From Eledone cirrhosa (lineage: Eukaryota), in the NCBI GenBank assembly GCA_964016885.1, contig OZ024760.1, forward strand, positions 4,030,001-4,094,000: a stretch of 64,000 bases of DNA, written 5' to 3'. Position 1 is the first letter of the stretch. Each line of letters begins with the position of its first letter. Positions 1-63,671 of the stretch are shown here, piece after piece. The notes beneath the pieces were generated by a model. It searched no databases, had not been told where the DNA came from, and saw nothing but the letters and a program-made list of their open reading frames with translations. The position numbers and the translations under genes are program-made.

Positions 1-3000
1 TGTTTCCTCAAAAACCAGTATGACTCTAAAAACCGGTTTGTCTGTGTGTTTACATACAGAATAGCTGGCCACTCACAGTAAAGTGATCAGTGAAAAAAAA
101 ACTTGGTACATCTACATATGTATACGTTTGTGTATTCATATACATACTAGTATTTCAGTATACATATATGGATGTACATCTTTGACTTAATTGTTTGAGC
201 GTCAGTCATACAAAAGTGAGTTACAAACGAAACGAAATTTAATTTCGTTTCGTTATTTGTTTTTATCGTCTCCGTTGAACCGGTACTTACTCACACTCTA
301 TGCAAGTTGGTCTGCCCACTACTAATTTTCATAGAAAAAGCATATAGCGATATGTGCTTTTACGATTCTCTAGAGAGGCCGGAAGATAGGTAAATATTGC
401 TGATGAGTTGTAACAACAACGAAACTAGTTCAATATTCCTTGTCTGGCTTTCTGGAGAATAGAGGAAAGATGTTTCCTCAAAAACCAGTATGACTCTAAA
501 AACCGGTTTGTCTGTGTGTTTACATACAGAATAGCTGGCCACTCACAGTAAAGTGATCAGTGAAAAAAAACTTGGTACATCTACATATGTATACGTTTGT
601 GTATTCATATACATACTAGTATTTCAGTATACATATATGGATGTACATCTTTGACTTAATTGTTTGAGCGTCAGTCATACAAAAGTGAGTTACAAACGAA
701 ACGAAATTTAATTTCGTTTCGTTATTTGTTTTTATCGTCTCCGTTGAACCGGTACTTACTCACACTCTATGCAAGTTGGTCTGCCCACTACTAATTTTCA
801 TAGAAAAAGCATATAGCGATATGTGCTTTTACGATTCTCTAGAGAGGCCGGAAGATAGGTAAATATTGCTGATGAGTTGTAACAACAACGAAACTAGTTC
901 AATATTCCTTGTCTGGCTTTCTGGAGAATAGAGGAAAGATGTTTCCTCAAAAACCAGTATGACTCTAAAAACCGGTTTGTCTGTGTGTTTACATACAGAA
1001 TAGCTGGCCACTCACAGTAAAGTGATCAGTGAAAAAAAAACTTGGTACATCTACATATGTATACGTTTGTGTATTCATATACATACTAGTATTTCAGTAT
1101 ACATATATGGATGTACATCTTTGACTTAATTGTTTGAGCGTCAGTCATACAAAAGTGAGTTACAAACGAAACGAAATTTAATTTCGTTTCGTTATTTGTT
1201 TTTATCGTCTCCGTTGAACCGGTACTTACTCACACTCTATGCAAGTTGGTCTGCCCACTACTAATTTTCATAGAAAAAGCATATAGCGATATGTGCTTTT
1301 ACGATTCTCTAGAGAGGCCGGAAGATAGGTAAATATTGCTGATGAGTTGTAACAACAACGAAACTAGTTCAATATTCCTTGTCTGGCTTTCTGGAGAATA
1401 GAGGAAAGATGTTTCCTCAAAAACCAGTATGACTCTAAAAACCGGTTTGTCTGTGTGTTTACATACAGAATAGCTGGCCACTCACAGTAAAGTGATCAGT
1501 GAAAAAAAAACTTGGTACATCTACATATGTATACGTTTGTGTATTCATATACATACTAGTATTTCAGTATACATATATGGATGTACATCTTTGACTTAAT
1601 TGTTTGAGCGTCAGTCATACAAAAGTGAGTTACAAACGAAACGAAATTTAATTTCGTTTCGTTATTTGTTTTTATCGTCTCCGTTGAACCGGTACTTACT
1701 CACACTCTATGCAAGTTGGTCTGCCCACTACTAATTTTCATAGAAAAAGCATATAGCGATATGTGCTTTTACGATTCTCTAGAGAGGCCGGAAGATAGGT
1801 AAATATTGCTGATGAGTTGTAACAACAACGAAACTAGTTCAATATTCCTTGTCTGGCTTTCTGGAGAATAGAGGAAAGATGTTTCCTCAAAAACCAGTAT
1901 GACTCTAAAAACCGGTTTGTCTGTGTGTTTACATACAGAATAGCTGGCCACTCACAGTAAAGTGATCAGTGAAAAAAAAACTTGGTACATCTACATATGT
2001 ATACGTTTGTGTATTCATATACATACTAGTATTTCAGTATACATATATGGATGTACATCTTTGACTTAATTGTTTGAGCGTCAGTCATACAAAAGTGAGT
2101 TACAAACGAAACGAAATTTAATTTCGTTTCGTTATTTGTTTTTATCGTCTCCGTTGAACCGGTACTTACTCACACTCTATGCAAGTTGGTCTGCCCACTA
2201 CTAATTTTCATAGAAAAAGCATATAGCGATATGTGCTTTTACGATTCTCTAGAGAGGCCGGAAGATAGGTAAATATTGCTGATGAGTTGTAACAACAACG
2301 AAACTAGTTCAATATTCCTTGTCTGGCTTTCTGGAGAATAGAGGAAAGATGTTTCCTCAAAAACCAGTATGACTCTAAAAACCGGTTTGTCTGTGTGTTT
2401 ACATACAGAATAGCTGGCCACTCACAGTAAAGTGATCAGTGAAAAAAAAAAACTTGGTACATCTACATATGTATACGTTTGTGTATTCATATACATACTA
2501 GTATTTCAGTATACATATATGGATGTACATCTTTGACTTAATTGTTTGAGCGTCAGTCATACAAAAGTGAGTTACAAACGAAACGAAATTTAATTTCGTT
2601 TCGTTATTTGTTTTTATCGTCTCCGTTGAACCGGTACTTACTCACACTCTATGCAAGTTGGTCTGCCCACTACTAATTTTCATAGAAAAAGCATATAGCG
2701 ATATGTGCTTTTACGATTCTCTAGAGAGGCCGGAAGATAGGTAAATATTGCTGATGAGTTGTAACAACAACGAAACTAGTTCAATATTCCTTGTCTGGCT
2801 TTCTGGAGAATAGAGGAAAGATGTTTCCTCAAAAACCAGTATGACTCTAAAAACCGGTTTGTCTGTGTGTTTACATACAGAATAGCTGGCCACTCACAGT
2901 AAAGTGATCAGTGAAAAAAAAACTTGGTACATCTACATATGTATACGTTTGTGTATTCATATACATACTAGTATTTCAGTATACATATATGGATGTACAT

Positions 3001-3011
3001 CTTTGACTTAA
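1..3011 (+). repeat. Tandem array of ~470-bp units (>=6.4 copies, starts before the window), one hammerhead ribozyme per unit; retrozyme-like
   Basis: Units start at 1, 471, 940, 1410, 1880, 2350 and 2822. By eye they differ only in the length of one A-tract. Each unit contains CTGATGA...GAAA plus several hairpins. Confidence 0.97.
393..437 (+). ncRNA. Type I hammerhead ribozyme (copies at 862-906, 1332-1376, 1802-1846, 2272-2316, 2744-2788)
   Basis: AATATTG-CTGATGA-GTTGT(AACA)ACAAC-GAAA-CTAG-TT-CAATATT: 7-bp helix I, intact core, 5-bp helix II, palindromic mini-helix III (ACTAGT), GUU cleavage triplet. Helix I can extend over ~366-459. Confidence 0.9.
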
Positions 3012-3135
3012 TCATATATATATAAATATATATATATACAATATATTAATAAATGGAAACTATATTTATAAAACCATATTTATTTTATTATACATATTTC
3101 AAGGGCCACCAAGGCAAATTATGGTGTGATTTCAT

Positions 3136-4263
3136 AATAATAATAATAATGAAATATTGTGTACAGTGCTCAGGTACACTACAACTCATCAAAAAGTGTA
3201 TGTATAGTACATAGGGTAATGTACAAACATCAGGAAAATGAACAGTGCATGAGTCATGATACACACATGTGTGCATGTGTATGGAAGGGGTACATCAGGT
3301 ATAGTTTTGGCGTATTTCAGGAAGCATGAGTGTCTTAAAGGATGCAGTGTCTCGGCAGCTAACAACTGATGCAGGCAGTTTGTTCCATGCTTCAGCAACT
3401 CTGAGCGTGAAAAAATGTTTACGAAAGTCATGGGAGCTGTGCTGTTTTCTGATTTTGTAGGCATGTCCACGTGTGTTAGACACATGGAGATCAAAAAGGT
3501 GCTCAGGATTGCAATTGGCGAGATGGTTAATAACAGGAGGTCAATGTTCTGAGCAAGATAGGGGTTCCAGACTGATGATGCGAATTTCAAGTGTGGTCGT
3601 ACCATAGCTGTATACAGTTTTAAATAGATGGCTGGAGAGCGGCTAACAAAGGTCTTGCTGAGTGATGCCAAGACACCCTCGGCCTTCTTGACAATCTTAG
3701 AGACATGCTTTGTCCAACGCAAATCGCTGCCCAGGTCACGTTCACAAGAGGACTTCTTGATATCAGTGTTGTGGAGGGAGTATGTGGACGCTGGATTTTT
3801 CCTCCCAAAATGCATGGTGGTACACTTGTCCACAGCCAGCTTCAGTTGCCAGTCTGTGATCCATTGCTGCATTGTGTCCAGGTCTGATTGTAAGAAAGAG
3901 TTGTAGATTTCAGGATCAGTCCTTTTGATTTCAAGGTACAGCTTGATGTCATCTGCATATTTCAGTACCGTGGCATTCTGTAAGTTGGCATCTATGTCAT
4001 TAATATATGCCACAAACAAAAGGGGACCAAGAACAGATCCCTGTGGTACACCAGATGACATCTCATATGGTGAAGAATGCTGTCCTAGAACCGTGACTAC
4101 CTCTTTTCGGCTGAGAATGAAGGATTTCAAACAGTCGAAAAGATCATCCCTCACACCCATTGCAGAGAGTTTTGCCATAAGTCTTTTGTGTGGCACAGAA
4201 TTAAAAGCCTTAGCAAAGTCAAGGTAAACAACATCCACCCATGAGCCGCTGTCAGTGATCCGG
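3136..4263 (-). mobile_element. 5'-truncated CR1/L2-group LINE (RT C-terminal part plus 3' UTR)
   Basis: ORF 3189-4322 has YLDFAKAF, GVPQGSVLGP and YADD motifs and is frameshifted near its C-terminus. (TAT)n tail at 3136-3150. 3'-end copies at ~21110-21240 (-) and ~34333-34665 (+). Confidence 0.93.
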
Positions 4264-4503
4264 CAGATAAAATACAGATTTGTTTTATAAATAAATATTG
4301 ACATACCCGGAAAAAAAGACAACCTTAACAGTTTGAGCTTCCTGGATATTGTATTTACTCCACTAATCTGTTGAGTGCTTTATATCAGTTATAAAAATGT
4401 TTAAGCTTGTTGAATCCCAACAAATTAAATATAACCTCTGCATATATATATATATATATTAATTCAAAATATTAACAAATATAGACATTCGTGTGATCAA
4501 GTA

Positions 4504-7972: not shown

Positions 7973-8566
7973 AATATATATATATATATATATATTTCAT
8001 TTTTGAATTTGTTTTGTAAGATTTCTTATCTGAAAACGTGTGTTGAAACATGTTGTCAATAAAAACACATGCACCTGTTGGTTTTCACCTCAATTTATTA
8101 GTAGTAGTTCCACAACAGTTAGTTCACCATACCGAGAACAAATGTTTCACCGTATTCAGACCCTCAGGTCGGATATATATATTATCATCATCATCATCAT
8201 CATCATTGTTTAACGTCCATCTTCCACGCTTGCATGGGTTAGACATGATTGTCCCACTTGAGGCAAGATTGGTCAGGTGACTGTGTCTTGTTCGTATAGA
8301 ACTATATATATATATTATCATCATCGTTTAACGTCCATTTTCCACGCTAGCATGTTGTATTTCGAGTATTAGACTTATATTGTACTTTTAACGTGGGTTT
8401 GTTTAATGTTTGCTTGCTCTCTTGCCCTATAGTTTTTATTTACAAATGCACCCTATTAGGTTTAACATGTCTTTCCATGATAATTTTCCTAAATTTTCCT
8501 AAATATCCATTCGCTATTCTTCTGAATTTTGGCTTGTTCTAGCCGATGATATTTCTTGTCTTTTCC

Positions 8567-8611
8567 TTGCTCTGATGAGTCCTAATTAATGGGACGAAAC
8601 ATTGTCAGCAA
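8567..8611 (+). ncRNA. Type I hammerhead ribozyme, canonical GUC site
   Basis: TTGCT-CTGATGA-GTCCT(AATTAAT)GGGAC-GAAAC-ATT-GTC-AGCAA, immediately followed by AATAAA. Confidence 0.88.
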
Positions 8612-8925
8612 ATAAAGATTTTTAATGTATTAAAGGCTTCTTTGTTAATTTATATAATTTTTCGGGTCTGTTTGATAACATTGAGCTATATCTTATACTG
8701 TCATTTCTCTAATACGACGAGTGTGTTTAACTCTAATGCACTCAAGTATTTTTATTTTTATCTTATATATATATATATTTAATACTAATAATAATAATAA
8801 TAACAGTGTTGCTATTATTGGGTATTAGCTTGATGTAGTGGGGTTCATGCAGAGCTGATATATAAAGAATAAGAAGTACCATGTGTTAGTTTGATAGCTT
8901 ATTGACTCTTTGGTGCTTCTTATTC

Positions 8926-10537: not shown

Positions 10538-19139
<8,602 letters not shown>

Positions 19140-29106: not shown

Positions 29107-29161
<55 letters not shown>

Positions 29162-31701
29162 TCAACGCTCACATGATGATGTGGACTGACATCCTAAAGC
29201 CAAGCAGACGCACTGCCAACAACTTCCAGGCGTCTAACAATGGCATAGCACCCTTGTATGGGCTCCGCAAAGACCACAAGACAGTCGACGACCCGACAAC
29301 AGGACCACCAACAAGACCCGTATGCGGAGCTAATATAGCTAGTAACTACAGGATCTCCTACTTCCTCTCAATCGTTATACGCCCCATAATCAAGATGTCC
29401 CCAGATGTATGTGACAGTACAGAGGACCTCCTCAGCAGAATCAGTGAGTGCAACAAAAACAGGAACCTATCCAACTGCATAATAGGCAGCATGGATGTGG
29501 TGTCACTGTACCCATCCATTAACATTGATTTTGCTGTGAAAAGATGTGTGGAGATGATCATTGAGAGTGAGGTGGAGTTCTGCGACGTCGACACAGACCA
29601 ACTGGGCCTCCTACTTAGACTTACCTACGACACTGACTACCTAGACAGCCATGACCTTAGACGTTTCTGCCCTAGTAGACCTATAAGAGGTAGACCCCCC
29701 ACCATAACCTCAATGGCAAAAAAGACTCCCATGGGAAGGTGGATTGGGTGGACCAAAGATATACGGACCCCCCAAAACAATGATCAGGTAAGAAAAATGG
29801 TCGCACATGCAATAGGGGCTAGTATCAAAACTACCCTAAAGGGCCACATATTTAAGTTCAACGAGAAGATCTACACCCAAAATGAGGGAGCAGCCATCGG
29901 CGTCAGCATAGCTGGTGATGTTGCCAACCTTTTCATGGTATGGTGGGAAAGGAGACTTAAAGATCTCCTTAATGAGAGCTCCATAGACCTTATCGTGTAC
30001 TCTCATTATGTAGACGATATCAATATAGTTATAAGAACACCCCCACTAGAGAGCACTAACAAGTTTGATTTAGAACATAGCACGATGGAAAGCACCCAGC
30101 AGATAGCTAATTCCATACACCAGAGTATAACTGTAACTATCGACTTCCCTTCCAAACACCCTAACAATAGACTACCTGTATTAGACACAGAACTCTGGAT
30201 TAACACTATAGACGAGAGAGCTCAAATTCTCCACTCACACTATGCTAAACCCATGGCCTCCAAATACCTGATACTCAAAAACTCAGCAATGTCCAGTAGT
30301 GCTAAGTTTAATATTCTGATCGCAGATTTGGTACGAGTGATGAAGAATGTGTCCCGCATGTGCGACCCAACAGAAATGGAAAGACACATCCAACACTTCA
30401 TCAACCACATGCAGTTCTCTGGCTACAACCAAAGAGACAGAGTCAGAGTATACGAAGGAGCCATGGAGAAGTATAAGACCCTCATAGAACTGGACATGAA
30501 AGGAATTTGCCCATTATACAGGAGCAAATCATGGAATAGCTTAGATAGGGCTAGACATAAGATAGGGAAAGCCACCTCATGGTACAACAACCAGAGATAC
30601 AAGAGTGTCATGTTTGTGGATGCTACCCCTGGAGGGAAATTAGCTAACCAGTGTAGAAAGGCCCTGAGAAAGACCCACTTAAAAATAAAGGTGGTAGAAA
30701 AGCCAGGAACCACCATAAAATCCCTGATCAGCAAAACCTACCCTTTTAAGAAAACCCACTGTACCAATAGGAAATGTATCATATGTAAGGTGAACCCCCG
30801 GATAAACTGTAAAACTAAAAACGTAGTCTATAGCATAAGATGTACAGAGGGTACTTGCAGAAACATGACAACAACATACATAGGTGAGACAGCTCGTAGC
30901 ATAGGTGAAAGGGTAGACCAACACTGGGGGGAACTGAAAGGACGAAAAAACGGGTCAGTACTATACGAACATGCTAGACAACATGACGGTAACATAGACA
31001 ACATAGAAATTAGAATAATATCTAAACATAGAAATGACCCAGCAGATAGGCAAATCAGAGAGGCCAGTGAAATAGAAATTAGAAGACCAAGACTAAACAG
31101 AAAGAATGAATGGAATAACAACAACACCCAAACAAACAACAGTGACCTAAGAGAAGTATAAATAAGTAAATAAAATAAAATAAATAAATAAATACATACA
31201 CAAGCACAATAACAACAAGCACATAAACACACACTAGTCACCCATCACACAGCAAACAAAACACTATACACACACGCAAACGCATGCGCAAAGAAGACAA
31301 AATAAAATAAACAAACAAGCAAATAAATAAATAAATATATAGACAGACTGAATAAAAATGGCGTAGACATACAATACAACAGGAGGAAAATATAGCACCA
31401 CTGACGATGTTGCAGATATGCAACGAAAGATTTATGATAAACTATATATATGTGTTTGTGTCTATATTGTATCTGTATTATTTTTGACCGTCGGTCAGTC
31501 AATGGCAACATTGAGGACCGAGTAAGTTAGATTACCGATATAAAAGACACAGAAGCGAGAAGCGAAAACCAACCAAACAGTGAGTGTGTTCTGTTATTAA
31601 TTCTGGCAATATTACACAAATATGACCCTCCCCAAGTATAACAATATTTGTTTCGACACACGATTTCATATAAAAAACCTCGCAAAACTAATTCATCGCC
31701 G

Positions 31702-31773
<72 letters not shown>

Positions 31774-41022: not shown

Positions 41023-63671
<22,649 letters not shown>

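Follow-up and report, generated by a model that had tools for sequence, protein, structure and literature searches.

The tandem organization of retrozymes and Penelope-like elements (PLEs) is of debated origin. One explanation is reverse transcription of circular RNA: circles have been proposed as templates of more than unit length (PMC4209133), and tandem cDNA of animal non-LTR retrozymes has been proposed to be made from circles by a PLE (PMC7229834). The other is local amplification of pLTR DNA (10.64898/2026.07.22.740005), discussed in a study that sampled no mollusc and whose accessible text does not take up tails or inverted arms. The signature of a PLE insertion is an inverted 5′-truncated copy together with a tail at one end (PMC8557442), and a PLE assayed in vitro cut both strands, extended them and began copying at two internal RNA sites, between which the tail lies (PMC11167929). 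Three published observations count against a circular template. For the Anolis PLE, the subject of the only in vitro PLE study, uncleaved RNA is the main substrate and the hammerhead is dispensable (PMC11167929); eight of nine predicted Xenopus dimers are without cleavage (10.64898/2026.07.22.740005); and the non-autonomous Chlamys elements, in a clade mostly lacking canonical hammerheads, are also head-to-tail multimers (PMC8557442).

A young family with more than 2,000 insertions provides genomic evidence that separates these models, and its value is mechanistic. We describe such a family from a 64-kb stretch of octopod DNA (the window, meaning the whole stretch analysed). The anatomy and variation of its insertions suggest that each array is probably the product of twin-primed, rolling-circle reverse transcription of one monomeric RNA circle, and that the family is a non-autonomous retrozyme dependent on a Penelope-type helper.

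A hammerhead array within a bipartite insertion

Window positions 1–3012 form a tandem array (TRF period 470, 6.4 copies, 99% matches) containing six identical 45-nt type I hammerheads at 393–437, 862–906, 1332–1376, 1802–1846, 2272–2316 and 2744–2788. These are on the + strand, the first has a GUU site, and the predicted cuts fall after 430, 899, 1369, 1839, 2309 and 2781. We number the unit u1 to u469, where u1 is window 431, the first base after the predicted cut. Unit length ranges from 469 to 472 bp because one A-run varies. The unit has a GC content of 0.35 and is non-coding, the longest ATG open reading frame being 19 amino acids on the + strand and 23 on the − strand.

The initial annotation of this DNA, made from the letters alone, had reported at least six near-identical units with one complete type I hammerhead each, and six intact hammerheads are confirmed. 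It had called them minimal; by the definition of that term in PMC4209133 they are instead of the canonical animal type I form, with a 2-bp helix III bearing a palindromic loop and a long helix I. The hairpins it listed at 41–60, 226–254 and 336–361 fold as described, as does the long helix at 366–459 (+), a lengthened helix I, which closes the ribozyme and in a circle would lie across the ligation joint. An Rfam covariance search, which the annotation had proposed, supports the motif, with Hammerhead_HH9 as the best clan match (E 9.6e-8 in E-value mode), but at 37.7 bits against a cut-off of 52 this misses the gathering score, and the unit lies below that score for every Rfam family, hammerhead clan CL00010 included. 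Matches to miRNA and sRNA families, which are also below cut-off and fall on TA-rich hairpins, were discarded. The monomer at 431–899 has a folding z-score of −10.4, reached by none of 100 shuffles. Helix III is unformed in the predicted circular monomer (p 0.00), and two loops are predicted to form a duplex at −7.2 kcal/mol.

Adding upstream DNA shows that the window (G000:C21:4030001-4094000) contains only the end of a 15,352-bp insertion (G000:C21:4017661-4033012). The locus runs from (TA)n through an inverted arm of 15.9 units, a head-to-head junction (u344/u351, with a 2-nt overlap) and a + arm of 16.8 units to (TA)n. The outer end of the inverted arm is u305, and the + arm, of which the window holds the last 6.4 units, ends at u230, the short end, at window 3012. 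The head-to-tail arrangement noted initially thus holds within the window and not for the whole locus, where an inverted arm begins 4.86 kb upstream of the window. An 11-bp target-site duplication flanks the 15.35-kb insertion; its right copy, read from the flanks, lies in (TA)n at 3013–3023 (unstranded) and its left copy at the far end, where the last two letters of that copy also belong to the element end. Between the two fixed insertion ends, which are the putative reverse transcription start sites, lies a tail (u231–u305; window 192–266, +) containing the 13-bp hairpin at 226–254. The 33 unit copies at this locus show no substitutions, only changes in A-run length, and carry an allele pair that is absent from the other 22 young loci.

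Family size and conservation of the ribozyme

The annotation had suggested a genome-wide check for dispersed arrays, and these are abundant: exact patterns match 9,224 hammerheads and 2,176 long ends followed by TA, with no matches to the reversed-pattern controls. When 60 of the long-end matches were sampled, 2 turned out to be internal variants and not true ends. The short-end pattern (1,261 forward matches) overcounts on the reverse strand and gives an order of magnitude only. A similarity search with the unit returned 273 matches from the 22 candidates scored among 355.

Subfamilies are 84–100% identical to the window unit. The oldest carries a GUC cleavage site and the youngest GUU, with 380 GUU and 87 GUC copies. 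GUU is a slower hammerhead site, and we count its presence in the youngest subfamilies against a circular template. The hammerhead core is intact in 467 of 479 unit copies. Across 16 chosen haplotypes, two of them from the second family described below, 97% of cells pair. Both sides change in 6 of 16 pairs, a level reached by none of 500 shuffles, with five of these six pairs depending on the two second-family rows, one covarying within the first family, and relatedness inflating the counts.

The second, related family has an insertion at window 13181–14070 (+), with a short inverted arm (13181–13236), a + arm containing two hammerheads (at ~13267 and ~13763, with a GUA site) and (TA)n on both sides. 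It has a 496-nt unit here and the same bipartite build, found also at L130:900–1490 and L144:990–1280. Its unit is identical to that of the first family at 267 of 524 aligned columns and has a U-U pair at the base of helix II. With 23,085 exact hammerhead matches it is about 2.5-fold more numerous, and the two families together account for more than 32,000 such matches in the genome.

Other features were seen nearby. A single canonical type I hammerhead with a GUC site lies at window 8554–8629 (+; HH9 29.3 bits, E 3e-4). On the − strand of locus L175, two tandem hammerhead copies 310 bp apart have a different palindromic helix III and are possibly a third retrozyme family. LINE reverse transcriptase fragments, one with an endonuclease domain, occur at 3189–4379, 44852–45847 and 55109–57991 (−), and no link between these and the array was seen. 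Exon-like frames of a host gene are found 38 kb from the array, at 41221–41316 and 59884–62480 (+), with a weak SAM match (E 0.03) and a filamin repeat (E 4.7e-7); the gene presumably resembles AREL1-type ligases.

Insertions have two fixed ends and an inverted arm

We compared two sets of loci. Set A comprises 23 loci chosen by similarity, and hence not by their ends. Set B was drawn from matches to the long-end pattern, and hence chosen for TA at that end; 90 of the first 100 in the list were taken, and 87 remain after removal of a duplicate (L177) and two internal variants that are not ends (L219 and L220). Locus L032 was left out of the counts of arms, junctions, duplications, 5′ ends, private alleles and substitution spectra, and a few complex loci were either dropped from the junction tallies or added to them manually.

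The u305 end is present in all 23 set A loci and an end at u230–235 on the inverted arm in 20; of the remaining three, one runs into a gap and two are single-armed. For 77 of the 87 set B loci the far end lies within the DNA examined. BLAST detects an inverted arm in 60 of these 77, ending at u228–236 in 55; four more loci show the short-end letters in the flank and one has an arm beyond a foreign insert. Insertions have two fixed outer ends about 72 nt apart (u305 and u230–236), which sit in (TA)n and are never at the ribozyme site, delimiting a tail of 70–74 nt. These ends are PLE-like and not LTR-like. The (TA)n target is seen in the flanks of set B and also in set A, which was not selected for TA. 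Contigs of four runs, of unspecified kind, were also compared. In those of public run X1, which may derive from the source sample, the unit gives way to (AT)n at window 192, 196 and 266 (u231, u235 and u305). A 469-nt backward joint in contigs of runs X4 and X6 was rejected as evidence of RNA, as it is equally expected from tandem DNA. Target duplications of 9–11 bp were found in 9 of 12 informative flanks among 68 tested, and the other three have longer matches in periodic microsatellite.

The inner junctions are scattered. Among 79 of them, 34 overlap by 1–4 nt, 16 are blunt, 9 have longer overlaps and 20 contain inserted letters, and near fold-backs occur at 11 of 85 (5.6 expected, p 0.02). 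Median arm lengths are 1.2 and 1.0 units; the longest arm has 31 units, each with its hammerhead, and contains two adjacent shorter units. Each arm would correspond to one priming event. The long arms of L192 and L197 lack part of the unit in their first turn (u275 to u98 and u105 to u59) but in no later turn, suggesting that jumps on the template happened soon after copying began. The inner junction of L228 (oriented 2670–2736) holds some 70 nt of foreign, GC-rich sequence, possibly a captured piece of cellular RNA.

A proposed mechanism: copying of a single circular monomer

The proposed mechanism would begin with transcription of an array. Adjacent hammerheads would pair by way of their palindromic helix III and release a 469-nt monomer, to be ligated into a circle. 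A Penelope-like protein with reverse transcriptase and GIY-YIG domains, probably acting as a dimer, would nick (TA)n on both strands at points about 10 bp from each other, and each DNA 3′ end would prime at one of two internal RNA sites (u303–305 and u230–236). Both reverse transcriptases would run round the same circle, for less than 1 to as many as 31 turns, and stop at random, and the two cDNA ends would be joined by 0–4 nt of microhomology. If both arms are copied round one circle at insertion, the array is made then rather than grown later. We infer all RNA-level steps from genomic sequence. The annotation had suggested rolling-circle cDNA made by a Penelope reverse transcriptase, and this fits the dispersed family, the Penelope-type ends and a variant pattern expected from copying of one monomer; the element that it gave as an example of such an enzyme is considered below.

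The ribozyme site is crossed by 62 of 82 long arms and 39 of 55 short arms, so a cut linear monomer that is read once cannot be the template. At least 10 haplotypes are present among the 23 young loci, each uniform. Nine of 50 informative loci have private alleles, ten in all, that are fixed throughout the two arms; of the other private alleles, one is fixed in one arm only, 9 are partial and 80 occur in a single unit. The nearest relative of an arm among the inverted arms is that of its own locus in 32 of 56 cases, tied in 12 and that of another locus in 12. The nine partial alleles and an ABAB pattern of variants between units at L035 show that some DNA-level duplication or assembly noise exists.

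Substitutions were polarized against the five nearest loci. The 88 changes fixed across a whole array include 30 A>G and 9 T>C (p 3e-4), with 14 C>T and 8 G>A, whereas the 230 single-unit changes include 25 A>G, 30 T>C, 29 C>T and 40 G>A (Fisher p 0.003 between fixed and single changes for A>G/T>C, and 0.09 for C>T/G>A). The array-wide A>G changes fall at 25 distinct sites, and the events lack full independence. Normalized per base, C>T matches A>G in frequency. The A>G excess is found at predicted unpaired sites (9 versus 2, p 0.04) and at paired sites (16 versus 7, p 0.03), which makes selection for G-U pairs at most part of its cause. The neighbour preference of ADAR is in the right direction and non-significant (a 5′ G at 2 of 25 sites versus 16%, p 0.20). 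Because the strand bias is confined to array-wide changes, these changes arise on one strand, most simply in RNA, and then go through a single molecule that is read repeatedly; the simplest such molecule is a circle.

The same Penelope-type twin priming could act on a long multimeric RNA, transcribed from a homogeneous donor array and left uncleaved, with the hammerhead a passenger or rarely active. This is the substrate that the Anolis PLE favours (PMC11167929), donors of up to 31 units exist, and precise joints are expected here as well. However, most arms are short, and if read-through transcripts of typical donors were copied, some copies should extend beyond the donor's inner junction, yet we found a second strand switch in none of 109 chains and a shared inner junction in none of 85. 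RNA-stage changes to a multimer should also appear unit by unit, whereas the A>G bias is seen only in array-wide changes, and the uniformity of each of the haplotypes among the young loci likewise speaks against it; we regard a multimeric template as unlikely. Growth of a short PLE-type insertion by later DNA expansion, through unequal crossover or slippage as in the local-amplification scenario (10.64898/2026.07.22.740005), would account for the L035 pattern, the partial alleles and the two adjacent shorter units in the 31-unit arm. It sits poorly with arrays of 16–17 units at the window's locus without a substitution between units, with inverted arms that are both long and have private alleles in common, and with older subfamilies that are not longer, the long arrays found being mostly young or middle-aged, and is in our judgement very improbable.

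A linear monomer released by the hammerhead would pass through the same one-molecule bottleneck if the reverse transcriptase, on reaching its 5′ end, jumped each time to its 3′ end, with no covalent circle. The distribution of 5′ ends gives this some encouragement, with a mild and marginal excess at u1–30 (18 versus 12 expected, p 0.055) and a deficit at u440–469 (4 versus 12, p 0.007), but the expected run-off peak is absent, only 3 of 187 ends falling at u1–5 (2.0 expected) with no pile-up at the cut site. An apparent pile-up at u1–5 (7 of 187, p 0.004) was a reference-boundary artefact that fell to 3 after exact extension, and a simulated excess at u1–30 (17 versus 8.2, p 0.0035) was set aside as based on uncorrected ends. 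Jumping reverse transcriptases often leave added or lost letters at joints, and there are no insertions or deletions at the ribozyme joint in the 23 young loci, making such jumping an improbable explanation. An origin of the arrays as artefacts of assembling one or a few copies is scarcely credible: A-run length does differ between units, and copy number at this locus comes from the assembly alone, but thousands of loci each have distinct flanks, duplications and haplotypes and belong to subfamilies 84–100% alike, and the same ends are present in contigs of a public run.

A putative Penelope-type helper

The rolling-circle reading calls for an enzyme supplied in trans, and the window contains a 5′-truncated PLE of two-end architecture (29160–31702, +) with a 662-amino-acid open frame encoding a reverse transcriptase, a Cys linker and a GIY-YIG-like end. 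The best homologue of this protein is from Octopus vulgaris (67% identity). Its family has 1,666 candidates, the best copies being 97–99% alike, and its ends near 31647 and 31702 have the same build as the retrozyme insertions. The annotation had suggested a helper like this element, but the element itself is not supported in that role. The architecture is common to both, but no sequence similarity was found between it and the retrozyme unit, and the two fusions described next involve another, Neptune-like family. Apparent fusions with the window PLE proved spurious, L178 being adjacent DNA that is folded back and L181, L209 and L233 independent insertions into a single microsatellite.

At L105, a single (TA)n-bounded insertion consists of a retrozyme arm with its long end, 41 nt of retrozyme and then a 5′-truncated PLE that ends at the short end of the Neptune-like family. 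At L191 the long end of that family is joined to a retrozyme arm. We call the family Neptune-like because of its CxxPxCxxC linker (after PMC8557442), a provisional name. It has 2,056–2,728 candidates, with two ends 33 nt apart; no homology to the retrozyme unit was found in 60 loci, and the family shows no intact hammerhead pattern. Two fusions among 87 loci point weakly to the Neptune-like family as a candidate helper; both could be deletions between neighbours, because these elements often lie together in one microsatellite. An open reading frame taking the place of the unit on the long arm, as expected of a helper with a shared end, occurs at none of the 87 long-end loci, and comparison of target duplications between PLE families gave no discrimination because the flanks are pure (TA)n. 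No relatives of solved structure were found for either PLE protein.

In 26 of 31 copies of the Neptune-like family (L105, L116–L175), the reverse transcriptase and endonuclease frames are offset at an A-rich spacer, indicating either a defective lineage moved in trans or a programmed frameshift. A third PLE family, with 71% amino-acid identity to the Neptune-like one, lies in the same microsatellite as a retrozyme (L203:2–2345, oriented).

We put forward one further idea tentatively, regarding it as possible but doubtful. Circles may be deaminated (A-to-I, presumably by ADAR) before copying, such that the edit of one molecule is stamped into every unit and inherited, and a helper dimer may recognize the circle by structure rather than shared sequence and be able to start its arms on two RNAs, its own mRNA and the circle. 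If true, both rolling-circle retrotransposition and heritable RNA editing would be naturally recorded in this family.

Comparison with known systems

On sequence grounds the octopod family is one of the animal non-LTR retrozymes, and appears to be mobilized in the manner of a PLE insertion. A search of the open literature on hammerheads, retrozymes and Penelope in octopus and cephalopods found no description of the family or its anatomy, in keeping with the annotation's impression that it was undescribed in octopus. The array is less strange than the annotation supposed, because both the class and the rolling-circle idea are in print, and more useful, because the insertions carry evidence on mechanism. 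With two priming sites and a target named, they define a 469-nt substrate for a direct test.

Like the retrozymes of coral, mussel and axolotl and newt satellite 2 (PMC7229834), the family consists of dispersed tandem non-coding units with one type I hammerhead each, low GC content (<50%), strong self-pairing and duplications of more than 4 bp. It differs in its monomer (469–472 nt here versus 150–450 nt), in belonging to a new host group and in an insertion anatomy worked out here as two inverted arms, two fixed ends and a (TA)n target; the word 'inverted' is absent from the main text of PMC7229834. Circles have been demonstrated for those retrozymes, whereas the octopod family is known here from DNA. 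In common with the Xenopus retrozymes (Li, Clavereau & Pollet 2026, 10.64898/2026.07.22.740005), it co-occurs with PLEs, ranges from dispersed monomers to multimers and has a unit within 51–972 bp. However, 24 of the 57 Xenopus families match known elements, nearly all of them PLE pLTRs, and the octopod unit showed no homology to either of the two PLE families tested; the Xenopus study discusses local amplification of DNA, and the octopod data favour amplification during reverse transcription.

The non-autonomous Chlamys elements, MRC1 among them, are likewise PLE-mobilized and form multicopy head-to-tail insertions, but they generally resemble their helper at the 3′ end and mostly lack canonical hammerheads (PMC8557442), and the octopod unit differs in this. 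The closest match in anatomy is to EN+ PLEs (Poseidon PAc, PMC11167929; Neptune and Naiad, PMC8557442), which have an inverted 5′-truncated copy, a tail at one end, two internal reverse transcription starts and an AT-rich or (TA)n target. Unlike these, the octopod unit has no open reading frame with a reverse transcriptase and GIY-YIG domain, and the family is not an autonomous PLE; its tail is 70–74 nt rather than 30–40 nt, and its arms hold up to 31 tandem units. The retrozyme hammerhead is intact, whereas that of the candidate helper looks degenerate. The octopod insertions link the inverted copy plus tail of PLEs to priming on both strands in one event.
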